Source: Gemmatimonadota bacterium (lineage in GTDB: Bacteria > Gemmatimonadota > Gemmatimonadetes > Gemmatimonadales > Gemmatimonadaceae). From it: a DNA stretch of 64,000 nt. The stretch covers positions 32,001 through 96,000 of the forward strand of contig JAZJZK010000007.1 of NCBI GenBank assembly GCA_040389905.1. The letters run 5' to 3'. The notes under the pieces were generated by a model that saw only the letters and a list, made by a program, of their open reading frames with translations, was not told the origin of the DNA and made no database searches. Positions 3 through 64,000 of the stretch are shown piece after piece. Made by a program: the position numbers and the translations under genes. The number at the start of each line of letters is the position of its first letter. Within the stretch, counting starts at the first letter, position 1.

Positions 3-72
3 GCGAGTCGAGGGGGTCTGCACGGCAAACCCAGACCGAGGGTGCAGATCCCTCGACGTCGCTCGGGATGAC
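3..72. repeat. REP-like palindromic repeat, family A (inverted pair, truncated at window edge)
   Basis: GCGAGTCGAGGGGGTCTGCAC...GTGCAGATCCCTCGACGTCGCTCGGGATGACA; matches the copies at 31066, 40826 and 48177. Confidence 0.8.
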
Positions 73-131
73 AATCGAGCAAGGCGTGCGAACGCCTTGC
101 GGCGTAACGATTTACCTCCCATATTCGCGCC

Positions 132-1469
132 GTGACCAGGATCACTCCGCTCACTAAAGACCGGCATCGCTCGCCCGAGGCTCCCGAGACCGGCCTGCGC
201 GAGCTGATGGCCATTCGTGAGATCGTTCATGCGTTTCTCACGGCCGATCGCCCTGAAGATGTCTTTCAGTTCGCGCTCGACAGGGTGACGCCGCTGGTCG
301 GTGGCTCGTTTGCCTGCGTCTACCTGATCGATGGCGCGTCGGAGCTGATGCGCCTGGCGGCGGTGCACAACTGGCCCGAGAAGTTCGCCCCCTTTCTTGG
401 CGAGATGCGGGTGCGGCTGGGTTTTGGTCCGAGCGGCGAGGCCGCTGCCGAACGTCGCGTGATTGAAGTGCCGGATATCATGTCCGACACATCGCTCGAC
501 GACTGGGCCGAAGTGGCGGCCGAGCTCGGCTTTCGCGCGATCGTGGCACTCCCACTCCAGACCGGCGAAGGCGTGCTCGGCGCGGTCGCGTTCTACTTCG
601 AGAAAGCGGGCACGATCAACTCCGAGACGAGAAGCCTGTTGCGCATGGTTGCCGATCAAATGGCGGCCACGGCGCAGAAGGCGCGCCTCATCGAGGACTT
701 GCGACGCGCCAACGCCGCCCTGATGGAAACGAACTCGGAGCTCGAGCGGCAATACGTCTCGCTCCTCGAGGCGCGGCGGGTCAAGGATGAATTCCTCGCC
801 AATATCTCGCACGAGCTGCGGACGCCACTGACCGCGGTCATGGGCTATCTCTCGCTCATGGAGGAAGGGCTCGCTGGTCCGATCACCGCCGAGCAGCGCA
901 AGACGCTCGCGCAGGTCAAGTCGTCGAGCCACGTTCTCCTCGACCTCATTGGCGACCTCCTGGAGCTGACGACGCTCAAGCGCGGCGGGGTAGGCGTCGT
1001 ACCAACCGCGTTCGACATGCGCGAACCGATGCACGATGCGATCACGTCGACACGCGGTCGAGCGGAGGGTGTCGCGCTTCGCGTCACCGAGCCGGATGCG
1101 CCTGTGATGATCGTGAGCGACAAGCGCAAGATCGCGAAAATGCTGGTCGCGCTCCTGAGCAACGCGTACAAATTCACCACCGACGGCGAGGTGCGGGTGT
1201 CGGTCTCGGCGCGCAACGATCGCATCGTGTATCGCGTACAGGACACGGGCATCGGCATTCCAGAGGAGATGCAGAGCCTCGTGTTCGAGGAGTTTCGCCA
1301 GGTGGATGGATCGAGCACCAGGCGGTACGGAGGATCGGGGCTGGGCCTGTCACTCGCACAGCGCCTTGCACGCCTGCTCGGGGGCGAGATCTACGTGGAG
1401 TCCACGCCCGGGAGTGGTTCGGTCTTCACGGTCGAGCTACCGATGGAATACCAGGCCCCGGCGCAGTAA
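132..1469 (+). CDS. GAF-domain sensor histidine kinase
   Basis: GAF-like N-terminus; H-box FLANISHELRTPL; NAYKFT, DTGIGI and GSGLGL boxes. Confidence 0.93.
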   Translation: MTRITPLTKDRHRSPEAPETGLRELMAIREIVHAFLTADRPEDVFQFALDRVTPLVGGSFACVYLIDGASELMRLAAVHNWPEKFAPFLGEMRVRLGFGPSGEAAAERRVIEVPDIMSDTSLDDWAEVAAELGFRAIVALPLQTGEGVLGAVAFYFEKAGTINSETRSLLRMVADQMAATAQKARLIEDLRRANAALMETNSELERQYVSLLEARRVKDEFLANISHELRTPLTAVMGYLSLMEEGLAGPITAEQRKTLAQVKSSSHVLLDLIGDLLELTTLKRGGVGVVPTAFDMREPMHDAITSTRGRAEGVALRVTEPDAPVMIVSDKRKIAKMLVALLSNAYKFTTDGEVRVSVSARNDRIVYRVQDTGIGIPEEMQSLVFEEFRQVDGSSTRRYGGSGLGLSLAQRLARLLGGEIYVESTPGSGSVFTVELPMEYQAPAQ

Positions 1470-1599
1470 GCCGACTGGTCTTCCGAAGGTGGCGCAAGTG
1501 GATCGCTGCGCCACTTACCACAGACCGATTAACTTCCACAACCAATCTCTGATCCTCGTTGTCCAACGAGCTCAGCTCCTTCGTGCTCCGGATTCGGCC

Positions 1600-48272: not shown

Positions 48273-51200
48273 TCAGGGGTACAGGACAGCGGTTGGCGCG
48301 CTGCGCATGATCGTCGTCCCATCGCCCACTCCTCCAAATTCATTCTTTCCCCAGCAATACGCCGTGCCGCCCGTCGTCAGTCCGCACGCCGCCCTCTCGC
48401 CAACGCTCAGCATTGAAAACGTCAGGCTGCCGGCGACCGCAACCGGCGTCAATCGGGTAATCACGGTCGTTCCGTCTCCCACGACACCATCTTCGTTCGA
48501 TCCCCAGCAATAGGCGGCCGCCGACGTCGTGAGTCCGCACATGGTTTCCCAGCCTGCCGTGACGCTGGAAAAAACCAACGTGCCGGCGACCGCAGTTGGT
48601 ACGTTGTGCGCGGTAGTGGAGCCGTCACCGGTGCCGTATCCGGAGTTTCCTCCCCAGCAATACGCTTTCCCCGCCACCGTAAGTCCGCACGAAAGATTGA
48701 GCCCCGCCGCAACCTTCACGAATTGGTGGCCCCCAACGACAAGCTGTGGCGGGCTTGCGACCAGATTGCCAGAGGTGGAACCGTTCCCGATCTGTCCGTA
48801 GTAATTCAAGCCCCAGCAGTAGATGTCATTGCCGGTCGTGACCCCGCAGGTATGGACTCCCCCCACAGCCAGCACGGCGAACGTCCGGCCGCCTGGCACG
48901 AGGACGGGAATTCTGGAGTAAGACCCAACAGCGCTGCCCAACGCTCCAGAGGAATTGTTTCCCCAACAGTAGGCAGCCCCGGTTGTCGTCACCCCGCACG
49001 TGTGCCGACTCCCTCCCCCTGTCGAGAGACTCGTGAAGGTCAATCCGCCCGAGACGGCTTGCGGCACACTCTCGAGACCGGTTGTGGCGCCATTTCCTAC
49101 GCTCCCCAGGGTATTGTCACCCCAGCAGTAGGCAATACCACCCGACGTCAGTCCGCAGGTGTGTTGCATCCCGACCACGAGCGACACGATTGAATCTCCA
49201 TTGCTCACCTTTATTGGCGTGGGCCGCGTCTGCACCGTCGTCCCGTCGCCGAGTTGCCCCAGTTGACCTCCCCCCCAACAGTAGGTCCCGGCCGACGAAT
49301 GACTGCAGGAGTGAATGCCCGCCGCCACGCTCGACACGATCGGTGCGGCGTCGGTGAGCACCGCAAAGCCCGCTGAGGTGACCGGTGTCAGACCCGACGC
49401 GCTGAAGGTGAGCGCGACTGTTCCGCTCCCAGTGACCGCAAGGTTGGTGAATGATGCGACGCCACCTACGGCGTTCACGGTCGTTGTCCCCGAGAGGGTG
49501 CCGCTCCCGCTCGCGATCGACGCCGTCACGGCATTGCTCCCAGTGGTACCGTTACCAGCATTGTCGACGAGTTGAATGACGGGCTGGATCGAAAGCACAG
49601 TCCCGGTCACCGAGCCCCCCGGCTGACGCGACATCGCCAGTGCACTCGCCGGTCCCGCCACGATGAGCGTCGACGTCGCCGGCACCTTCGAAGGCGCAGA
49701 GAAACTGATGCGATGCGTGCCAACTCCAGTGACGGCCAGATTGGTGAACGTCGCGATTCCGCTCGAAGCAGTGGCCGTCAGCGTGCCAGAAAGCGTGCCC
49801 GATCCCAAATCGTATGCCGCGGTCACGACAGTGCTGTTGTCGCTCGTCACCACCTGACCCGCACCATCGACCACCTCGACGACCGGTTGCGTGGCGAATG
49901 GTGCGCCACTCGTTGCACCCGCCGGTTGTACGGAAACTCGAACTGCCGGTCCTGAGGTCCCAATCGCAAAGGCGTTGGATGTTACAGATGGCGTTCCAGG
50001 CGCCGAGAACACCAACTGATACTGACCCTCGGCCGTTATGCTGAGATCGGTGAATCGTGCAACGCCGTTGGCGACTTGCACGCTCTGCGTTCCCTGCAGG
50101 CTACCAGGCGCCGCGCCCGGTCCGCCCAACTTCGCGGCAGTGACGATCAGTCCGTTGATGTTCGTCGCCGTGTCGCCAGACGCGGTCTTGAAGACGAGCT
50201 CCGGCTGCACTGGCAATGCGACGTTCTTTGTTCCATTCACGAGTGGCGCGATCAGTACCATCGAGCCCCGCACCCTGAACGCCTTCGCAACCGACGGAGC
50301 GCCCGCGCCACTGCCCGCCGCAGCGAAGATCCCTGGGAGGCCCGGCAGAAGCGCCGTTACGACGCCGCTCGCCGAGACCGTTGCCGTCGTCGGATCATTC
50401 GTTGTGTACACGAAGGTGAGGCACGCGCTGATGTCGACGCCGTTCGCGTCCTTCGCAACGGGATCGAGCTGTGCCCGCTGACCAACTGCCAGATCGATGA
50501 GCTGCCCGCCCGGCGAGGGCTCCAGAAGTGGCGAGGGCAGGTATGAGTCACCGATCAACGCGTACACCCGCGGAATCGTGATCGTGGTGGCGACAGGCGT
50601 CACGGCAAGCGTCGTGTTCGTGCGCGCCGAGGCGCTCAGGCTCACGGAGAAGCGCGCGATCTGCTGCGCGTCCACGATGTTCACGACCCCGTCGTTCGTC
50701 ACGTCGCCCTGCGTTGCCACGGCCGCTGCATTCGAGACGCTCAAGCCAACGGTGGATCGCGCGAGCTGCTGCGCATCGATGATGTCCACCGCATTGTCGA
50801 TATTCACGTCGCCCCAGAGACCGCTCAGCGCAACGCACGCGTCCAGCTTTCGCACGCGCACGATCGACATGAGATTTGCGCCGACGTCACTGCCCGCGGC
50901 CGTCGGCAGGAGCGTGACGCTCGTCGCGCCGGTGGACGCGGTGAAATACACCGTCGCGACGGTAACCGTGCTGGTCGTTCCCGCCGCGTCGAACACCGAC
51001 AACGAGAGTTGGCCTGCCGATGCATTCGCGCTATTGAACGAGACCGATCCGAATGACCCGGCCTTCAATGAGTCGAAGGTGAGTCGCGTCGGGCTCCACG
51101 ACACCGTCGTCGTCAACGAGGCAAGATTGGTCCCTCCCGCGGCCGACATGTCGATCACGATGGGAACCGCGACGGTCGTATTCGGCGTCGCCGTGATCTG

Positions 51201-51311
51201 GCCGCCCGCTCCTGGGCGAATCGTGATGACGTTCTGTGCGCTGAGCACACGGCCGGCGAAGGCCAGCGCGGACGCGCAGATCGCGAGCGCGAGGCGGCGG
51301 CGAATTGACAT
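48273..51311 (-). CDS. secreted protein: cohesin-like, dockerin, Ig-like repeats, RCC1-like propeller
   Basis: Signal peptide; GDVNIDNAVDIIDA and GDVTNDGVVNIVDA; QP(V/E) repeats; repeated HTCG...AYCWG units. Confidence 0.85.
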   Translation of the reverse strand: MSIRRRLALAICASALAFAGRVLSAQNVITIRPGAGGQITATPNTTVAVPIVIDMSAAGGTNLASLTTTVSWSPTRLTFDSLKAGSFGSVSFNSANASAGQLSLSVFDAAGTTSTVTVATVYFTASTGATSVTLLPTAAGSDVGANLMSIVRVRKLDACVALSGLWGDVNIDNAVDIIDAQQLARSTVGLSVSNAAAVATQGDVTNDGVVNIVDAQQIARFSVSLSASARTNTTLAVTPVATTITIPRVYALIGDSYLPSPLLEPSPGGQLIDLAVGQRAQLDPVAKDANGVDISACLTFVYTTNDPTTATVSASGVVTALLPGLPGIFAAAGSGAGAPSVAKAFRVRGSMVLIAPLVNGTKNVALPVQPELVFKTASGDTATNINGLIVTAAKLGGPGAAPGSLQGTQSVQVANGVARFTDLSITAEGQYQLVFSAPGTPSVTSNAFAIGTSGPAVRVSVQPAGATSGAPFATQPVVEVVDGAGQVVTSDNSTVVTAAYDLGSGTLSGTLTATASSGIATFTNLAVTGVGTHRISFSAPSKVPATSTLIVAGPASALAMSRQPGGSVTGTVLSIQPVIQLVDNAGNGTTGSNAVTASIASGSGTLSGTTTVNAVGGVASFTNLAVTGSGTVALTFSASGLTPVTSAGFAVLTDAAPIVSSVAAGIHSCSHSSAGTYCWGGGQLGQLGDGTTVQTRPTPIKVSNGDSIVSLVVGMQHTCGLTSGGIAYCWGDNTLGSVGNGATTGLESVPQAVSGGLTFTSLSTGGGSRHTCGVTTTGAAYCWGNNSSGALGSAVGSYSRIPVLVPGGRTFAVLAVGGVHTCGVTTGNDIYCWGLNYYGQIGNGSTSGNLVASPPQLVVGGHQFVKVAAGLNLSCGLTVAGKAYCWGGNSGYGTGDGSTTAHNVPTAVAGTLVFSSVTAGWETMCGLTTSAAAYCWGSNEDGVVGDGTTVITRLTPVAVAGSLTFSMLSVGERAACGLTTGGTAYCWGKNEFGGVGDGTTIMRSAPTAVLYP

Positions 51312-51465
51312 GAGACCTCTGGTGGGTACATGTCGCCGACGACATCAGCGGCATATTGTTATTGACTGTTCAAATGTATACGAATTCAGGCGAAGGCGCA
51401 CGTCCGTACGGCAACATCAAGCGGGCTGATGCTCACGAATACAGCCTTGATGAAGCAGCCCAAGA

Positions 51466-51957
51466 ATGAAAACGCCAACTATCCATCCCCACGCGTTCGT
51501 CCACCCCGCCGCCCACGTCATCGGCGACGTCACGCTCGGCGCGCGCGTGAGCGTGTGGCCCACTGCTGTCATTCGTGCCGATACCGACGCCGTCGTCATC
51601 GGCGACGATTCCAACGTGCAGGATGGCGCGATCATCCACTGCGACCCCGGCATCCCGTGCACCATCGGCAATCGCGTGTCACTCGGTCACCGCGCCATCG
51701 TGCACGGCGCCACGATCGACGACGACGTGCTCGTCGGGATGGGGGCCGTCGTGCTGAACAACGTTCGAATCGGAAGCGGATCCGTAATCGGGGCAGGGGC
51801 GGTGTGCCGCGAGGGCACGGTCATTCCACCCCACTCGCTCGTCGTGGGTGTCCCGGGCAAAGTCATCCGGGAAACGACCACGCTGGAGCGCGAGCGAATC
51901 GCTCGCGCAGTGGCCTCGTACCTATATCTCCAGGACGTACATCGTTCCGGCGGTTGA
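51466..51957 (+). CDS. gamma carbonic anhydrase family protein
   Basis: Hexapeptide repeats; IRAD, NVQDG, GHRAIVHG. Confidence 0.92.
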   Translation: MKTPTIHPHAFVHPAAHVIGDVTLGARVSVWPTAVIRADTDAVVIGDDSNVQDGAIIHCDPGIPCTIGNRVSLGHRAIVHGATIDDDVLVGMGAVVLNNVRIGSGSVIGAGAVCREGTVIPPHSLVVGVPGKVIRETTTLERERIARAVASYLYLQDVHRSGG

Positions 51958-51976
51958 CCGCAATTGCGACTGTCGA

Positions 51977-54900
51977 TTACGGCGTGAGACGAAGCACCGA
52001 GCTCCCGAGAATCACCAGGAATTCGGTATTCCTCCACACGACTCGGCCGCCCCCGTTCACGTCGACGGGCGCACCAGTCGCGGTTGCGATGTAGGTGCGT
52101 CCACCCGCACGGAACACCGTCGTCCCATCGCTCCCGATCGCATCGATCGAGGCACTGGACGTGAGCGAGGAGACTTGTCGCAGCGTGCCCGATGGTGCGC
52201 GCAGCCACACCTGGCGAATATTCGATCCGTCGGGCTTGAGGAATGCGGTCCAGCCATTGTTCAGTTCGTAACTGTAGGCCGGGTCGCCCAGGTTACTGTA
52301 CACATAGGTGGCGAGCGTCGTTTCGGTCGTTCCGTCGTGCAGCACCGTGTAGTAGGTTCGTGTGCCGCCCGTCGATGGTGTCCTCCGGGTGAACACGACA
52401 TTGGTCCCATCTGTTCTTGGATCGACGTTCCACCACGTCGCATTGTCGTCGTTCGTCAGTCGTTGCACAGCGCCAGCGTGGTACCAGTAGACGTCCATGT
52501 CTCCGCGACCCATGTACGCGATGGATCCGTCTGGTGCCACGTCGTTGTTGGTATTGTTGGCCCACGACGTCACGAGGATGTCGCTACCTGAGATCAGATC
52601 GCGACGGTAGAGGTCGAACAGTCCGGGCGCAGGGGATGTCGTAAACGCCGCATAGTTGCCGTTCACGACGATGTTCCCCCAACTCTCGAGATTCGTCGTC
52701 GTGTAGAGCGAGCCACTCCGGTAGTCGTACAGCGAGTAGTTCACCGAACCGGCGACGCCCGCGCCCAGGATGGCCCCGAGCGGCGTCACGAGGCGCGTCG
52801 TCCCCGTCAGTCCGGTGGGCAACGGTATGGTGGTACTCGCGCTGCTCGACAGATTCCAGAGCGCGAGGGGCTGGCCGCCGTCACTCGGACGCCGGTATAT
52901 CGCGCGGTCCCCGCTGGCGTCATCGACGTTGCCTGGGGCGGTGCCGAGGAGCGTAAAGTGCGCGCTGGAACTGACGTACACTGCTCGCTTGATCGTCGTC
53001 GAACGTCCCTGCGAATCCGTCCCCTTGAATACGATCTCGATTGTCTGTCCGGTGTAGCTGCTCACCGAGGTCGAGCCACTGACGCTGCTCGTCCCGGTTG
53101 CGAGCATCGGTCCACCGGTGATAGACACCGTCAGGCTCGCGCAGCCCGCCGGGTCATCATCCCCGCAGGTGGCCGCATAGTTCAAGGTGCCGATCGCCGC
53201 GCTGGCCTCGGTGGGCGACGACACCGAAACGCTCGGCAGCGCATCATGGATGATCGGCTTGGTGGCCGATGCCGTCACGCCATTCGCATCGACGGCCGTC
53301 GCGACGACGAAGAGTGTGTCCCTCGAGAGCCCCGTGAGGTCCATCGTCCCGGTCCACGTTGTGGACGTCGGGCTGTTGCGCGTAATGGTGACTGGCCGCC
53401 CGCCTACCGTCACCGACATGGATGTGATCGTCGTGTTGGACGCCGCGCTGACGTTGAGCGAGTAGCTGTCGCCGGCGTACGCGTACGCAGGAGGAACTCC
53501 GATGGCGACATGCAACGGCGAGAGCTCGAAGTTCGCAACGAGCGTCCGGTTGCCGGTGACCGCGAACGGATAGTCAGTGAAGGGGTGGACGATGACCCCG
53601 TTCTCCGTCCAGTTCAGGAAATTGTAGCCAGAATTCGGAGCCGTGGCGACACTGATCTTCGTGCCGACGTCGTAGGTCGAAGCGCCATACACCGCGCCGC
53701 CTCCGGACGGATTCGCCGATACGGCGATGACGCCGCGCAGCGAGGTCGTCGCGAAGTTTGCGACGAGGGTGCGCGCGCGCGTGACGTTGAAGGTGTACTG
53801 CGAATCCGTAGAAACGACCGTACCATTCTCCATCCAGTTGGAGAACTTCCACCCCGCATTCGCCGTGACCTGAACAGTCGTCGCCGTGCTCGTTTGAACC
53901 GAGGTGCCGCCGCCGAGCGTCGTGCCGGCGCCAGAGGGATTCACCGACGTGGCGATCGCGACGTTGCCGTCGACCTTGAACGGGATCGTCACGACCCCGC
54001 CCGAGGCGGAGTACACAGTGATGCTCGCAGTATCCGGCACGAGGCCGGTCACCAGACCCGAGGAGGACACCGTCAGAACAGCAGGCCTGATAGACGCATA
54101 CGTCAGGCTTGCGCACGCCGTCACATCTGCGCCGCCGGCATCCTTGGCCAGTGGCCGGAGCTGGGCCTCGGGCTGAAGGGGCACGTGTGTGCGAAAGACC
54201 TCGTTGGCAGGGTCGAAGCTGCCCAGCGTGGCGGCATAGCTGTGTGGGACAGTGAGCGTTGCGACCGTCGCCGGCGTGGACAGCAATGTATTGGTTCGCG
54301 GAGATGCGCTGAGGCCGACCGAGAAGCGGGCAATCTGCTGGGCGTCGACGATGTTGATCGTGCCGTCCGCCGTCACATCACCGTTCGTGGCCAGCGCAGC
54401 CGGGTTCGCCACGCTCAACCCCACGCTGGAACGTGCCAACTGCTGCGCGTCGACGATGTTGACCGTGTTGTCCGCGTTGACGTCGCCCCAGTAGCCACCC
54501 TGCGCGATGCAGGCGTCCAGCCAGCGCACCCGAACGAGCGACATGATGTTCGCCGCCGTCTCGTTGCCGGCCGCCGTGGGCCGAACCTCCACGGTGGTCG
54601 CGCCGGGGGTGCTCGTGAAGTAGACGGTCGCCATGGTGACCGTCGTCGTTGTGCCGGTGGCGTTGAAGATCGAGAGCGTGAGGTTGCCGTTCGCGGCGTC
54701 CGCCGCATTGGCGGTGAGGCTGCCGAAGTTCCCGGCCTTTACCGAATCGAAGGTCAGCCGCGTCGCTCCCCACTTGAGCTGTGTCGTCAGCGAGGCGAGG
54801 TTCGCGCCCGCGGCATCGCTCATGTCGATGATGATCGGTACGGCGACCGTCGTGTTGGGCGCATACGTCGCTGCGCTCACGCTGCCGGCGCGCACGTGGA

Positions 54901-54988
54901 TTGTGCCTTGGGCGGCAAGGGGCGCCGAGGCGGCCAACGCAGCGGCCAGCATGAGTGGCGCGATCACAGAACGTCGCATGAATTTCAC
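51977..54988 (-). CDS. secreted protein: cohesin-like, dockerin, InlB-B-like repeats, Ig-like domains, propeller-like C-terminus
   Basis: Signal peptide (ATG 54979 possible); GDVNADNTVNIVDA and GDVTADGTINIVDA; two G(W/Y)xFxNWxENG...TLVANF repeats. Confidence 0.82.
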   Translation of the reverse strand: MKFMRRSVIAPLMLAAALAASAPLAAQGTIHVRAGSVSAATYAPNTTVAVPIIIDMSDAAGANLASLTTQLKWGATRLTFDSVKAGNFGSLTANAADAANGNLTLSIFNATGTTTTVTMATVYFTSTPGATTVEVRPTAAGNETAANIMSLVRVRWLDACIAQGGYWGDVNADNTVNIVDAQQLARSSVGLSVANPAALATNGDVTADGTINIVDAQQIARFSVGLSASPRTNTLLSTPATVATLTVPHSYAATLGSFDPANEVFRTHVPLQPEAQLRPLAKDAGGADVTACASLTYASIRPAVLTVSSSGLVTGLVPDTASITVYSASGGVVTIPFKVDGNVAIATSVNPSGAGTTLGGGTSVQTSTATTVQVTANAGWKFSNWMENGTVVSTDSQYTFNVTRARTLVANFATTSLRGVIAVSANPSGGGAVYGASTYDVGTKISVATAPNSGYNFLNWTENGVIVHPFTDYPFAVTGNRTLVANFELSPLHVAIGVPPAYAYAGDSYSLNVSAASNTTITSMSVTVGGRPVTITRNSPTSTTWTGTMDLTGLSRDTLFVVATAVDANGVTASATKPIIHDALPSVSVSSPTEASAAIGTLNYAATCGDDDPAGCASLTVSITGGPMLATGTSSVSGSTSVSSYTGQTIEIVFKGTDSQGRSTTIKRAVYVSSSAHFTLLGTAPGNVDDASGDRAIYRRPSDGGQPLALWNLSSSASTTIPLPTGLTGTTRLVTPLGAILGAGVAGSVNYSLYDYRSGSLYTTTNLESWGNIVVNGNYAAFTTSPAPGLFDLYRRDLISGSDILVTSWANNTNNDVAPDGSIAYMGRGDMDVYWYHAGAVQRLTNDDNATWWNVDPRTDGTNVVFTRRTPSTGGTRTYYTVLHDGTTETTLATYVYSNLGDPAYSYELNNGWTAFLKPDGSNIRQVWLRAPSGTLRQVSSLTSSASIDAIGSDGTTVFRAGGRTYIATATGAPVDVNGGGRVVWRNTEFLVILGSSVLRLTP

Positions 54989-58220: not shown

Positions 58221-59228
58221 ATGGCCGACAGTTCCGCACGGCTCGAACCAGAAGCCATTCGCGCTTGGCTGGCGTCGGATGGCGGGTTCTATTCTGACGA
58301 TGCGGTAGTGTCAGTGCTCACGCGCTGCCGCTCGCTGACTGAGGTTCGCTTCGCTGCCGGGCTGCTTTCAGTGGGTGGCTGGTATGTCAAGGACGCTGAT
58401 ACATTCGGCCATCCCCGCTACCTGTTGCGGCCACAGTTTCGCTTCGCCGGGCGCGTGGTTTCCTTTGTACTCAACTCGCGATGGACGAAGAAAGCGGCGA
58501 TAGTGGACGTAGTGAGAGATGCACATGATTCGGCTCGGAGCCCGTTCGCCACAACGGTTCGCGAACGAGGGATGCTGTTCATTCCGGTTGATGAACTCAA
58601 TTGCGTCGAAACAGCCCGAGAGCTTCACGCGTCGCTGGAAAAGGAGTTCCAGCTAGACTATCGGCGTGATCCCGAGACGGCCTATGCCGTGCCGGCGCTC
58701 GTAAAGCGCGTTCTGCAACGTGAATTCGACTGGAAGCAACTCGCGATTACCGAGCGCGCTCAACGATATCCGGCATGGGTGTCGGCCTATGGGCGGACGT
58801 TGCACTCGGGAGGCATACCATCGCACTACATGGCCGTGATCTCCCGGTGCGAGACCTCCAGTGAACTACGCTTCGTGCTTCCGATCCTCAAGGCGCGGCG
58901 ATGGCGCGCTGGCGCACAGAACAGACTGATCTCGGACGGATTCGAAATACGAATTCAGGAGAATGCCGCGGAAGCGGTTTTTGACTTTGTTCTGATCGAC
59001 CGAACAACCGGGCGAACGTTCGCCCTTGACGTTGTCTCTCCGCTTGACACATCCAAGTCACCCCTCCAAAGGGTGCAACACCGCGGCGCGGCGGAAGCGC
59101 TGAAGTGGCATTATGAGCAAATACCCGCAATAGATGCGGCAATGAAAGGCCAATTCTGGTCGGGTTTGTTACTGGAATCTGCTCCTCATGCCACAAACGC
59201 CCCGGCGGTAACTTGGCCACAAGGCTAG
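58221..59228 (+). CDS. hypothetical protein with two degenerate DUF559/Vsr-like nuclease-fold repeats
   Basis: Internal repeat RCRSLTEVRF...PQFRF...AAIVDVV versus RCETSSELRF...IQEN...FDFV...FALDVV. Confidence 0.6.
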   Translation: MADSSARLEPEAIRAWLASDGGFYSDDAVVSVLTRCRSLTEVRFAAGLLSVGGWYVKDADTFGHPRYLLRPQFRFAGRVVSFVLNSRWTKKAAIVDVVRDAHDSARSPFATTVRERGMLFIPVDELNCVETARELHASLEKEFQLDYRRDPETAYAVPALVKRVLQREFDWKQLAITERAQRYPAWVSAYGRTLHSGGIPSHYMAVISRCETSSELRFVLPILKARRWRAGAQNRLISDGFEIRIQENAAEAVFDFVLIDRTTGRTFALDVVSPLDTSKSPLQRVQHRGAAEALKWHYEQIPAIDAAMKGQFWSGLLLESAPHATNAPAVTWPQG

Positions 59229-59861: not shown

Positions 59862-62800
59862 ATGAGCCAACAGCGTACTGCGTCAGGCAGAACCAACGGG
59901 CGCGTAGTATTGACCGCAGATGAGCTGGCGACGCCGTTGCGCCTCGCCAACTCTCTAAGAGCGCGCAATTGGCTATGCGAAGACGCGTCGAGCATAGAGC
60001 TCCCAGAACATCTCGATGAAGTACAGGTGTCACTGATTGATTGTCCTCACATAGACTTAGAACAGGTTGCCTTGATTGCATTGCTCATCCGGTTCATTGC
60101 GGACCATGGGAGGAGACTCTACGTAAGGTGGCCGGAGAATACGAATGAGGAGCAGGCGGGGCGATGCCGCTTTCTAACACGCATCGGCCTGCCTGAGGCC
60201 ATCGGTCTCAGAGCGCCAGAATATCCATGGCAATCGAGAGTCCTTGAAATAAACAAACTAGCATTTCCTTCCGAAGGGTCATGGGAAGACAAGCAAGCGG
60301 TGCGCCGATACCTACCATTGACGTGGTTCGACAAGAAGTCATTTAGCTATGAAGAGCCCATATGGGAGGCAAGCGCGTACCTCCGGTCAGCGTTCACAAA
60401 TAGACTTCGAGAGCAACTCACTGCCGGCGGCTTTCTTGACAGCAAAGCGATACTAACGCTGAATACCGCCCTCTTCAACGAAGCTGCCTGGAACGCAGTC
60501 CTTCACGGCGGAAACAACCCCGGGGATGGATGGGGCGTCATGTGTGCGCACATGGACAGCGAACAGACGCGTTCGTCGAAACAATCAACCAAGATCGAGA
60601 TTGTTGTAGCCGACCTCGGGCAAGGAATTCCACAGTCTCTCGGTGAAACGTTCGAAGCCACGGCTCCTGAGGCGATTCGTAAGCGTGTATGCTCGCGCGC
60701 CTCGATGATTACTCTTTTTGCACTTACGCCGGAAGGAAGCCGCCGACCGATTCCCCACAAGAAGCGCGGCTCCGAGTCCGTAGGTGGTTTGACTGACCTT
60801 GCGTACCTGTCTGCAGCCTGGGGCCGGATGCGTCTGTATTCTGGAGGCGGAGGGGTGGAGGTGGCTGGTGGAAACCGGGGCGGAGCGCTCCAGCAGCGGA
60901 TTCGCGTAGACGACTCAAGAACGCACGCGGCACTCCCCGGAGTGCAAATTTCCTGCTCGTTCGAGGCTCCAACTGCTTCTGACAGGGTTCTCTTTGCCTC
61001 GCAGCGTCAGGAATGGGCGAACGATGGCGACGTGATCTCGGCCATTGATGCTCTCGGATCTTGGGGAGCAATTACAACGCACGAGGCAATCAACGACCTC
61101 CTCTCAGCTCTGCCCAATTCATCAGGAACAGCCATCATTGACCTCGGATACGCACCGATCGACAAGGATAGCCTTCGAACGCTCATGCGGACGATTCACG
61201 CACGCGAACGTAAGAGGATGATTGTCTATTGGAATGTTGCTGCGGACTGGGCCTTGCTCAGCGAGACGGCAGCATGGATGGCCACGCATGCCGTCGCAAA
61301 TCAACCACCGACACTTGTGGTCCGTGCAGTAGATGACGTGGCATTGCTTGGAGCGACGCACAGTCCCCAGTTGTTGGCGGCCGTCGAAAAGACACATGGA
61401 CTGGTGGTCGATGCAGAGCAAAGTGCACAGAAGGGTGAAGCGATTCTAGCGTGCGCCCTTGAAGGCGGGGCGTACAACGCTGTGACGTCGAGGTGCAATG
61501 TTGCGTTCGTCGCCCGAGGATTCGATGCTGCTGGCCCAGGAGCGGGATTCTACTCCGGTAAAATACACCTGCTTAGCGGAACCACTAGGCGCCGTTTCTT
61601 TTCGCTCAGTAAGAATATCGCTGTCGCCCATGGGAACACTGTCAGGTGGGCCGAAGCGCTTTACGGACTTCTTCTTGCAGGACTCGCCGAGGAGGACATA
61701 GGAGACGACGGACACTTGGTCCTTGTAGGTTTCTCAACATCAATTGCCAAAGTCGCTGACATAGTGTCCAGTAGACTCGCCGCGACGCACGCGCATTCCG
61801 CAATCAATCTACTCTCATTCGATGCACCGACTCAGGAGGAACTACGACCATTAGTTCAGCGGGATAGCAAAGTAGTCTTGTTGACGGATGCGGTATCAAC
61901 CTCGTCTTTGTCTGACAGTGTCGTGGCGGCCGTGGAACGGTGTGGCGCCAAGGTCGTTATGATGGCTATCGCAGTAGACGCCAGAGCTGAAGCCACTGTT
62001 TCTTCGTGTCCAACGTCCGCTTCGGTCACACTCGACCCAGGGCCAGCCAGCCATGAGGGCTCGGCCAAGGAATACTGGGTGGACCCGATTTCGCAGATCC
62101 CTGCCGCAAGCCGTGAGTGGGATACTGCCATTGATGCCCGGATTCCGCACACGCTTTCACTAATTCACTCGGCCAGGGCTGTACGGTGTGGACACATTGT
62201 GGATGGTGCTCGGCATTCGGAAGTTTATGTGGATGTGAAGGAGCTGATAGATCGATGTCCGTCGCAGCTATTTGATACCAGTCAGGCCGAGATGCGCGCC
62301 CGTGTGTCAAAGCGCGGTTGGGGAGATTTTGTCCCGTCGGTGCTACTGTACCCAAGCGGGATCCGTCGGATTGAGGTTATGCGGTCGCATCGGGACGTTG
62401 GCGCTAGCCGTCCTGCCTACGAGACCGCCGTGCAGCAACTGCGACGCCTCCTTTCACCTCTCTGGAAGCCAGCAGGAAGAGAGATTGTTGAGAAGGAGGT
62501 ACTGCGAACTTTTGATCCCGGTGGGCGGTCTCGCTGCCAGGCCGTACTTGAGTTCACGGAGCCCATCGCCGTGCATCCGAGCCGCGACAAGCCAGACATG
62601 ATGGTGGTGGATGACGGACTTTCCTCGGGAAGGACGGTGAGAGAGTTGCTCAGACTAGCGGCGGCAGCTGGCGCCGGGCGCGTGCTAGTGTTCTGTCTTG
62701 TTGCGCGCCTTAAACCGCGAGACCTTGAGTTTTGGGAGTCGCTCCGAGTCGTGTCCAGCGACGGCGGCGACGATGTAGAGACTTGCGTCGTACTTCCCCT

Positions 62801-64000
62801 ATACCTTCCTGTGTCCTTCAATGACGCGCACACCTGCTCATATGACATTACGGCAGGACGTCTAAGAGAATGGGCCAACGGCACCGACGGAGCGGCCCAG
62901 ATTGCTCGGAATCTGCTCAAGACCGTGGAGCCGCAGTCCCCCGCGACTTGTGCGCGCCGGTCGGAAATCTATGAACGATCATGGGTGAGAACCCACGTTC
63001 TCGCAGAGCTTGCAACAGAGAGTCAGGAAGCTATTGAGGCCCTCCGCGATGTGATCGCCGCTTGTGAGAATGCGGACGATGCGGACGAACAGCTGGCCGT
63101 CCTATCCGCGTTCCTTGAGAACTGGCGGATATTGGGCACCCCCCGCGTGAGGCAAACTCTCGCTAGGAGCGTGGAACGCCTCTCTGTACACTTACTCCGG
63201 GCAAGTGATACACGCGAAGACGTGCGTTTAGCGGCGGTCGCAATCCTGAGATCCCTATTCGTCTCGAGCTTTTTAGAGGAACTGCGCGATCTTCCCAATC
63301 TGCCCGGTGCATCCATTGCTCTAATCGAACGAGCCACATTTAATGCATTCACGCTTCGAACAAGAGCGACGCAGTCAAGCGGCATCGCGCTCTTTCTCGA
63401 CGCGCTTCAGCTTACACCCTTCGGAAGGAAGTCTGCAGGTGACGAAAGGGACCACGACGGGCAACGTGAGCGAATTGTAGACATGACAATGCGGTTGGGG
63501 ATCGCCTGTGCGATGACCGAGGCACCCATCGGAATGAAGGACCGCGTTGAGCGCGCCGACCTACTGATGCTGCGGGACGGTGCTCTGTATCATCAGCCGC
63601 TTGGACAGACTCTCCAGGCAATCGCCAGGTGGTCTCGTCTCGCACCGGGGACCATCAAGAAAGAGACAGTCGAGATCACGCTAAAAAGCGTTCAGGAGCA
63701 TTCGCGTTTCATTACTCGCCGAGTTCTGCCCGTGATTGCGCCTTTGGCGATGTTAATGCGCGACGCGGCAGGCGATAGCGACGACATAACAATGCATGAT
63801 GGCTTGTTGTACTTGTCCACAGCAGAGAATCTACGAGGTGAGTTGATAGGCGATCTCGGGTCAATCGCCTTTCGTCTGGAGCAGTTGCAGCAATCGCCTA
63901 ACTATCCTCGCGCCCTGACATCGGCTGCGGAGACGGCAGAAAAGATTTACGCTCATCTGGCGGCCCGGGATAGTACAATTGTGCGCTTCCTGAGAAGCCT
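59862..64000 (+). CDS. giant multidomain protein (partial, at least 1379 aa): STAS-like, GHKL ATPase, STAS-like, two PRTase domains, helical region
   Basis: Hand translation from ATG 59862 (in-frame TAG at 59850) finds no stop before the window end; EAAWNAVLHG, IVVADLGQGIP, VVLLTDAVSTSS, MMVVDDGLSSGRT. Confidence 0.88.
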   Translation, partial: MSQQRTASGRTNGRVVLTADELATPLRLANSLRARNWLCEDASSIELPEHLDEVQVSLIDCPHIDLEQVALIALLIRFIADHGRRLYVRWPENTNEEQAGRCRFLTRIGLPEAIGLRAPEYPWQSRVLEINKLAFPSEGSWEDKQAVRRYLPLTWFDKKSFSYEEPIWEASAYLRSAFTNRLREQLTAGGFLDSKAILTLNTALFNEAAWNAVLHGGNNPGDGWGVMCAHMDSEQTRSSKQSTKIEIVVADLGQGIPQSLGETFEATAPEAIRKRVCSRASMITLFALTPEGSRRPIPHKKRGSESVGGLTDLAYLSAAWGRMRLYSGGGGVEVAGGNRGGALQQRIRVDDSRTHAALPGVQISCSFEAPTASDRVLFASQRQEWANDGDVISAIDALGSWGAITTHEAINDLLSALPNSSGTAIIDLGYAPIDKDSLRTLMRTIHARERKRMIVYWNVAADWALLSETAAWMATHAVANQPPTLVVRAVDDVALLGATHSPQLLAAVEKTHGLVVDAEQSAQKGEAILACALEGGAYNAVTSRCNVAFVARGFDAAGPGAGFYSGKIHLLSGTTRRRFFSLSKNIAVAHGNTVRWAEALYGLLLAGLAEEDIGDDGHLVLVGFSTSIAKVADIVSSRLAATHAHSAINLLSFDAPTQEELRPLVQRDSKVVLLTDAVSTSSLSDSVVAAVERCGAKVVMMAIAVDARAEATVSSCPTSASVTLDPGPASHEGSAKEYWVDPISQIPAASREWDTAIDARIPHTLSLIHSARAVRCGHIVDGARHSEVYVDVKELIDRCPSQLFDTSQAEMRARVSKRGWGDFVPSVLLYPSGIRRIEVMRSHRDVGASRPAYETAVQQLRRLLSPLWKPAGREIVEKEVLRTFDPGGRSRCQAVLEFTEPIAVHPSRDKPDMMVVDDGLSSGRTVRELLRLAAAAGAGRVLVFCLVARLKPRDLEFWESLRVVSSDGGDDVETCVVLPLYLPVSFNDAHTCSYDITAGRLREWANGTDGAAQIARNLLKTVEPQSPATCARRSEIYERSWVRTHVLAELATESQEAIEALRDVIAACENADDADEQLAVLSAFLENWRILGTPRVRQTLARSVERLSVHLLRASDTREDVRLAAVAILRSLFVSSFLEELRDLPNLPGASIALIERATFNAFTLRTRATQSSGIALFLDALQLTPFGRKSAGDERDHDGQRERIVDMTMRLGIACAMTEAPIGMKDRVERADLLMLRDGALYHQPLGQTLQAIARWSRLAPGTIKKETVEITLKSVQEHSRFITRRVLPVIAPLAMLMRDAAGDSDDITMHDGLLYLSTAENLRGELIGDLGSIAFRLEQLQQSPNYPRALTSAAETAEKIYAHLAARDSTIVRFLRS

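Follow-up and report, generated by a model that had tools for sequence, protein, structure and literature searches.

A giant sensor with tandem phosphoribosyltransferase folds and a receiver-kinase partner: a candidate Detocs-like defensive phosphorelay in Gemmatimonadota

We analysed a 64,000-nucleotide (nt) stretch of DNA from a Gemmatimonadota bacterium (assembly GCA_040389905.1, contig JAZJZK010000007.1, positions 32,001 to 96,000; hereafter the window, G000:C7:32001-96000, whose position 1 is C7 32001). Running past its end is a gene for a giant protein in which STAS-like and GHKL kinase domains, two phosphoribosyltransferase (PRTase) folds, a helical region and a histidine-kinase-like module follow one another in a single chain. 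The gene directly after it encodes a receiver domain fused to a kinase of the APH/TCAD9 type. We favor, with confidence only a little better than even, the model that this pair is a horizontally moving, Detocs-like two-gene defensive phosphorelay with a new sensor and a kinase effector.

The sensor gene, its family and its partner

The original prediction, made from the letters of the window, had a frame open from the ATG at 59862 to the window end. Recomputation confirmed this: there is no in-frame stop, and the frame continues to a TAA at C7 96445 (window-extended 64445), overrunning the window by 445 nt and giving a complete protein of 1,527 amino acids (aa). The motifs quoted with it lie where it placed them (EAAWN with E207 at 60480, DLGQG with D251 at 60612, VVLLTD with V671 at 61872 and MMVVDD with M913 at 62598), and extending the contig past 64000, as it had proposed, recovered the C-terminus, a HATPase domain, together with the downstream receiver-kinase gene (Table 1). 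A Logan contig is identical to the assembly across the whole operon (0 differences, 0 gaps), which excludes a single-assembler artefact; it probably comes from the same reads and is not an independent sample. The gene has a GC content of 0.564 against 0.634 for the genome, and its GC at third codon positions (GC3) is 0.584 against a genome median of 0.757; of the 1,893 long open reading frames (ORFs) that pass a crude filter, 1.8% have a GC3 below 0.60. Promoter and terminator scans gave counts at chance level (4 vs 3.6 and 7 vs 7.0).

Word-index protein searches returned only the query itself, and it was an exhaustive HMMER search with residues 1-1200 that revealed the family, with 70 matching proteins at E<=0.001, of which 44 reach E<=1e-30, more than chance would give. 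Self-hit aside, 33 of the 70 are full-length homologues (1,429-1,560 aa, 25-36% local identity), and with the query they make up alignment A1, to which residue counts out of 34 refer. The self-hit and 36 of the 69 other matches (fragments, partial proteins and PRTase-only matches) are excluded from A1, and loci from the unpublished genomes G182 and G813 from the alignments altogether; the latter are counted in some tallies only and support none of the claims made here. Nearly all homologues are metagenomic, one coming from a Lacunisphaera metagenome-assembled genome, and all 30 clusters looked up hold one or two sequences. No curated family spans the sensor, Pfam and NCBIfam giving PRTase-level matches only, and PADLOC returned no match for the window's protein.

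The partner gene starts two bases after the sensor stop. Its kinase matches Pfam TCAD9 at 3.9e-11 and APH at 4e-6, and its receiver is seen by profile in the window's genome and by Pfam in 6/6 homologues. Two scans of the collection gave 11 loci, among which L007 and L008 are the same, L010, L014 and L015 overlap at 97.5-100%, and L009 and L013 stop short of a downstream gene; the counted set is thus six independent loci plus the window's genome. A receiver-kinase gene directly follows the sensor in 7/7 of these, at a spacing between a 4-nt overlap and a 21-nt gap. Pairwise identities of sensor and partner correlate (Spearman 0.91 over 15 non-independent pairs from 6 loci), as co-inherited genes should. 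In the partner, the Asp and switch Ser of the receiver and the Lys and Glu of the kinase are present in 7/7, and the kinase HGD and DF motifs in 6/7. Membership of PDC-M60 was considered for the pair and rejected: the partner gives PDC-M60B/C matches (best 3.9e-5), but the sensor gives no corresponding PDC-M60 match.

Table 1. Coordinates of the sensor gene, its parts, its partner and the split relatives (window positions unless a contig or locus is named)
Feature	Position	Residues	Strand	Basis or remarks
Giant sensor gene	59862..64000; whole gene C7 91862-96445 = L001 5862-10445		+	ORF recomputation, homologues
STAS-like domain 1	59994..60236	~45-125	+	hhalign; no conserved phospho-Ser
GHKL domain 1, CapK/anti-sigma-kinase type	60369..60977	~170-372	+	conservation, hhalign
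STAS-like domain 2	61014..61361	~385-500	+	DxG[FY]xD motif; phospho-Ser absent; least conserved region
PRTase fold 1	61479..62021	~540-720	+	pyrE-like hood; PRPP loop T-D not D-D; NCBIfam pyrE_Therm
PRTase fold 2	62154..62816	~765-985	+	canonical DD..GxT loop; conserved H778, R784, H785, R882
Helical region	62859..63536	~1000-1225	+	conserved R..[HQ]..[TS] motif (R1157, T1164)
Candidate phospho-accepting helical domain	63534..63971		+	His1244 codon 63591-63593
Second HATPase, histidine-kinase catalytic type	63969..64000, on to C7 96442	~1370-1527	+	hhalign
Partner gene, receiver + APH/TCAD9 kinase, ~529 aa	C7 96448-98037 = L001 10448-12037, outside window			GTG start inferred
Split operon	L101:1374-5375 (G077:C2)			beside serine recombinase
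Split operon, second copy	L106:7520-11216 (G255:C1)			both copies by recombinase or transposase genes

Input modules: STAS, GHKL and the tandem PRTase folds

The domain order proposed at the outset (STAS, GHKL, STAS, PRTase, PRTase, helical) is supported. GHKL 1 and STAS 1 are unseen by Pfam, and for both GHKL domains, the first and the C-terminal one, Pfam and PDB sequence searches gave weak HATPase_c matches only (2/15 and 1/6 members); GHKL 1 and STAS 1 were recovered by profile-profile comparison (hhalign), scored against shuffled controls. GHKL 1 matches STAS-GHKL-DUF4325 proteins at 96.7% and anti-sigma kinases at 77.7%, with a score on its own of 72 against a shuffle maximum of 19.5, and residues 40-372 match the STAS-GHKL part of the single-chain STAS-GHKL-DUF4325 proteins at 97.7% over 239 columns. 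Its motif residues are E207, N211, H215, D251-x-G253-x-G255, R295, G309 and G360. Those of the N-box (Glu and Asn), of the DxGxG box and of the lid (Arg), as well as the later glycines, are kept in 32-34 of 34 sequences (E207 in 32, N211 in 33, D251, G253 and G309 in all), so that ATP binding by the domain is probably intact. The GHKL core with its N-box and DLGQG box had been called correctly.

Of the two STAS-like segments in the original prediction, the first is recovered by profile comparison (59% against anti-anti-sigma STAS domains, score 26 vs shuffle maximum 11; 61% against STAS-GHKL-DUF4325 proteins), the second only weakly and over 42 columns (38.6%, score 25 vs 12.7). The STAS 2 match to anti-anti-sigma factors reaches the motif preceding their phospho-serine, and D427 is invariant (34/34) in a region of 16% mean pairwise identity. 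The residue after DxG[FY]xD, where those factors carry the phospho-serine, is Ser in 4/34 and Thr in 3/34, and no STAS 2 column exceeds 44% Ser/Thr across the 34 sequences. CapK-type kinases have a conserved aromatic residue for single-stranded DNA between STAS and GHKL (W68 in CapK); W123 and W155 (23/34 each) and F161 (31/34) are candidates for a counterpart here.

The single-chain STAS-GHKL-DUF4325 proteins used in these comparisons (L025-L034, from family f6/f7 genomes) are ~420 aa long and keep their STAS serines. One of them, L034, matches the PADLOC DrmA model (positions 137-393, E 5.6e-40), a hint that the STAS-GHKL-DUF4325 module may occur fused to DISARM helicases or in a group with them.

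The chain had originally been read as a one-polypeptide switch. In the RsbV/RsbW-type form of that reading, GHKL 1 would phosphorylate STAS 2 and so toggle the PRTases. The STAS-GHKL-STAS order, as in the single-chain STAS-GHKL-DUF4325 proteins, and the intact GHKL 1 active site are what such a switch would have. Against it, the phosphorylatable STAS antagonist of an RsbW/RsbV pair is missing, in that the STAS 2 phospho-site lacks the conserved Ser/Thr of CapS and VapS (PMC13373217, excerpts); STAS 2 also shows no match to the DUF4325 domain (hhalign 0.13%), and a conserved C-terminal histidine, His1244, and the partner gene would be left unexplained. We consider an in-cis switch very unlikely and replace it with a proposed two-gene phosphorelay running through His1244 and the receiver-kinase gene.

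Two PRTases, the first with a degenerate and the second with a canonical loop, had also been predicted, and Pfam, NCBIfam and PDB profiles bear this out. Both share the hood and the phosphoribosyl pyrophosphate (PRPP)-loop motifs of type I PRTases (PyrE/APRT class), and the two acidic residues plus GxT of that class occur in fold 2 only. Fold 1, with an NCBIfam pyrE-type match at residues 665-713, has Thr for the first acidic residue (position 675, 29/34) followed by an invariant D676 (34/34) and is probably non-catalytic. The loop of fold 2 is well kept (D917 and G923 34/34, D918 and T925 31/34), Pfam PF00156 is found in 13/15 members (E 1.6e-5 at residues 913-954 of the window protein), and this is the best-conserved region of the sensor, with a mean identity of 30%. 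Unlike type I PRTases, the folds stand as two tandem copies within a signalling protein, and their NCBIfam scores all lie far under the enzyme-family cut-offs. The long helical region expected beyond them is present, without a Pfam repeat match and without any tetratricopeptide repeat (TPR) family in 15/15 members scanned with Pfam; it does not close the protein, running on instead into the second HATPase domain, most of which lies beyond the window.

A weak match in genome G077 led to a three-gene relative in which STAS-GHKL, a PRTase with a degenerate loop, and an HD-CE domain (Pfam PF24391) fused to a canonical PRTase are encoded separately. Two true cases were found among 251 genomes, a third match being unrelated. 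Its parts correspond, in the same order, to those of the giant protein: the kinase matches at 98% by hhalign and, over the loop region only, the first PRTase scores best with split gene 2 (36 vs 22) and the second with gene 3 (34 vs 21). The relative differs in its three genes, its HD-CE output and its lack of a histidine kinase or receiver; a STAS domain in its second gene is unconfirmed. Its first two genes have no PADLOC or NCBIfam name, and it is a candidate defence system in its own right. Nicastro et al. 2023, said to be the source of HD-CE and PRTase-CE, may cover this split form. The comparison suggests that the kinase and the PRTase pair form a portable unit for sensing, which drives HD-CE in one form and a histidine-kinase relay in the other.

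These data also bear on the idea that the toxic effector is the canonical fold 2, which would drain PRPP or nucleotides and be restrained or reset by the kinase modules and the partner in the manner of an antitoxin. Its conservation, intact loop and extra invariant His and Arg residues would suit a toxin, its counterpart in the split relative is fused to the HD-CE effector, and PRTase folds occur in the known defence toxins retron III and PsyrT (PMC13092281 and PMC13712802, excerpts) and in ShosT, a weak match here. Yet an effector's layout, receiver plus output, is found in the partner and has its parallel in Detocs (bioRxiv 10.1101/2023.01.24.525353, excerpts), and the split relative keeps the PRTase pair while its output changes, which fits a transducer better. 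We judge a toxic role for fold 2 unlikely, if worth keeping in view.

The C-terminal module and the proposed relay

The absence of an H-box, as originally noted, holds only for the first GHKL domain; the C-terminal module has a candidate phospho-acceptor, His1244, kept in 32/34 sequences. Of the 69 HisKA matches in the genome, 61 supplied histidine-kinase catalytic domains for comparison, and residues 1370-1527 match these at 93% over 116 columns (hhalign score 43.8 vs shuffle maximum 13). The N-box Asn, N1439, is present in 33/34, and position 1477, the G1 Asp site, is Asn in 19/34 and Asp in 8/34; His1244 and N1439 stand out in a region otherwise 17-18% conserved. In the Atlas, residues 1215-1527 fall nearest to HisKin-conflict (0.95, 207 shared features), the top neighbour, and to HisKA_2 kinases, the Atlas clusters listed being proteins of 212-347 aa; the HisKin-conflict model itself (Pfam PF22561) matched no member scanned, its curated cut-off not being reached; a genome search with this family gave no match either, but as the controls gave none as well it carries no information. 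A second conserved histidine, at position 1161 (His in 26, Gln in 7, Asn in the window's protein), was considered as an H-box and rejected, as it does not align to one. A recent internal GHKL duplication is unlikely, GHKL 1 and the C-terminal HATPase barely matching each other.

Detocs, as described in excerpts of bioRxiv 10.1101/2023.01.24.525353, has three genes, among them the stand-alone receiver DtcB, has TPRs in its sensor, and has swappable effectors (purine nucleoside phosphorylase in 80%, or restriction endonuclease, TOPRIM, and membrane/hydrolase types). Like it, the present pair joins a large sensor, here ending in a histidine-kinase-like module, to a receiver fused to an enzymatic effector that replaces the DNA-binding domain, and it has both the receiver phospho-Asp and the enzymatic effector; of the histidine-kinase features, the catalytic domain and the conserved histidine are found, but the H-box match is non-significant and G1 and G2 are degenerate. 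Unlike Detocs, it has two genes, no stand-alone receiver among adjacent ORFs of at least 90-100 aa, a STAS-GHKL-STAS-PRTase-PRTase sensor and an APH/TCAD9 kinase output.

CapK and VapK (PMC13373217, excerpts) combine STAS with a GHKL kinase, are linked to immune loci, are reused with different outputs and respond to single-stranded DNA (ssDNA); their separate STAS partners, CapS and VapS, carry an absolutely conserved phospho-serine and come with a winged helix-turn-helix (wHTH) or a VapC target. The sensor likewise has STAS, a GHKL kinase with an intact active site and then STAS, a likeness drawn through related STAS-GHKL proteins rather than CapK itself. In contrast to CapKS and VapKSC, its STAS partner is fused, lacks the serine and leads into PRTases and a histidine kinase, and in place of a wHTH repressor or VapC toxin, domain scans found no DNA-binding output domain, HTH or PIN in sensor or partner. 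By its domains, the pair falls outside Detocs, CapKS and VapKSC; by analogy, it would work like Detocs at its output end and like CapK/VapK at its input end, while lacking defining features of both.

The architecture, the conservation at the catalytic sites, the constant presence of the partner and a distribution that is patchy and low in GC are all observed; from them we infer each functional step of the phosphorelay model. The N-terminal STAS-GHKL part would act as a CapK/VapK-like sensor of infection or DNA damage. The two PRTase folds, one degenerate and one canonical, would form a single-chain pseudo-dimer with PRPP or a nucleotide as its ligand, and would relay the signal as a gate rather than work in salvage. 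The C-terminal module would then be phosphorylated on His1244 and pass the phosphate to the partner, on the invariant Asp of its receiver, freeing the APH-like kinase to phosphorylate a host metabolite or protein and so arrest the infected cell. The phosphate would come somewhat more probably than not from the C-terminal catalytic domain; a supply from the N-terminal GHKL acting in the manner of CheA is doubtful, and a docking role for the histidine without phosphotransfer rather more so.

A more specific version of this relay is an immune sensor that works as an AND gate: a CapK-like GHKL switched by ssDNA would phosphorylate His1244 only when the PRTases report a phage-altered PRPP or nucleotide state, unleashing the APH-like killer kinase. 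GHKL 1, in origin a serine kinase, would here have been turned into the catalytic half of a histidine kinase of the CheA kind, with His1244 ~1,000 residues away on a degenerate transfer module reminiscent of ChpT/Spo0B. Such a gate would jointly explain why the STAS serine is missing, GHKL 1 intact and the second GHKL decayed, and why the His and the receiver Asp are conserved; we nonetheless consider it rather improbable.

Several observations weigh against a defensive phosphorelay. His1244 aligns in register with the HisKA H-box His at a non-significant level (4.6%, score 14.6 vs shuffle maximum 13.0), and the C-terminal HATPase lacks the G1 Asp in 26/34 and has no conserved G2 glycines. STAS 2 lacks the serine that CapK-type kinases phosphorylate, leaving the substrate of GHKL 1 unaccounted for, and the window's own GHKL 1 has Gly in place of the Arg before G309. 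The receiver is without its canonical Lys (Arg in 5/7, neither in 2/7), and the window's copy reads D-N at the acidic pair. The partner at L010 (L010:6110-7597) has a deletion of ~36 residues covering the kinase catalytic loop, and the sensor at L011 one in-frame stop (L011:1717-1719), each reflecting decay or assembly error. Strict defence-type neighbours occur in only 3/7 loci, and the neighbour counts come without a background rate; at L006, 11.9 kb of sequence contain neither a defence nor a mobile neighbour. Finally, PADLOC gives only weak domain-level matches and no defence-library membership.

Genomic setting and significance

The island location that had been proposed is supported. The gene preceding the low-GC island, which we take to be a ribonucleotide reductase, is common to 16/16 genus loci compared, and the DNA after it to none. 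At the end of this gene (L001:4137-4184) a lower-depth contig in run X1 matches 48 nt and then diverges, possibly representing a related strain without the island. Full-length sensors were not found in 400 phylum genomes, 54 genus genomes or 400 further genomes of the Lacunisphaera phylum; no homologue turned up in the plasmids, phages or viral contigs searched. A family-level search with the N-terminal profile gave 0/300 and, having missed the known split relative in G077, is of limited sensitivity.

Defence or mobile neighbours accompany the operon in 6/7 loci. At L007 (L007:6497-14348) these are Thoeris, as two TIR genes facing a SIR2-STALD gene, followed by a short peptide with an ATP-grasp ligase and a STAND NTPase; at L005, an integrase, of the tyrosine type and 7 kb from the operon, and a RelA/SpoT-domain gene with an upstream partner (L005:1-2984); at L011 and L012, Y1 transposases; and at L014, the same locus as L010, a TrwB-type coupling protein. 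The window's genome has decaying defence debris (L001:12265-15013, C7 98265-101013) comprising an HsdS fragment, a frameshifted RhuM-family gene and two PIN toxin genes 1.4 and 2.6 kb downstream, which were not seen beside the operon in other loci; one PIN gene has, by eye, an AbrB-like neighbour. The conflict role originally proposed is supported as probable, and its anti-phage part is suggested by genomic context.

A non-immune role in metabolic or stress signalling would have the PRTase pair gauge pools of PRPP or nucleotides in the way of PurR and PyrR, and the relay tune a small-molecule kinase. Every part has housekeeping signalling precedents, and L006 lies among metabolic genes, which together with the lack of defence-library membership is what this role would lead one to expect. 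The very sparse, low-GC distribution, absent from the close relatives searched and scattered over clusters of one or two members, argues against it, as do the neighbours just described and the lack of a transcriptional output, and we find it distinctly unlikely; the defensive phosphorelay stays our preferred model.

Two further features of the window were noted. At the start of the low-GC island, a 335-aa ORF (58221-59228, +) has no Pfam, NCBIfam or PADLOC match, was not seen in other loci by inspection and is, by eye, presumably a duplicated, degenerate DUF559-like nuclease. Two long secreted proteins (48273-54988, -) show, by eye, cohesin- and dockerin-like segments and RCC1-like or invasin-like repeats.

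The architecture is undescribed in the literature searched; Nicastro et al. 2023 and Burroughs and Aravind 2020, the latter reportedly on conflict histidine kinases, could contain it or the split form. It is not described in the surveyed excerpts of PMC7159879, PMC13092281, PMC9503650, PMC10542128, PMC13712802 and bioRxiv 10.64898/2026.01.15.699771, and neither PRTase nor receiver is mentioned in the main text of PMC13373217. The validated PRTase system of DefensePredictor (PMC13092281, excerpts), a retron-III-like protein of 343 aa, is a different one.

The question at stake is what defensive two-component systems sense, the trigger of Detocs being left unstated in the excerpts of bioRxiv 10.1101/2023.01.24.525353. 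With two genes only, the family is a compact test case: its candidate sensors, a CapK-like module for ssDNA and a pair of PRTases, lie in one chain wired to a phosphorelay, with single residues open to mutation at each step. STAS-GHKL with two PRTases may also serve as a portable module that plugs into a histidine kinase or into an HD-CE effector of the nucleotidase type. Should that hold, PRTase folds in immunity could act as transducers besides being toxins, and APH/TCAD9 kinases could be effectors under receiver control.

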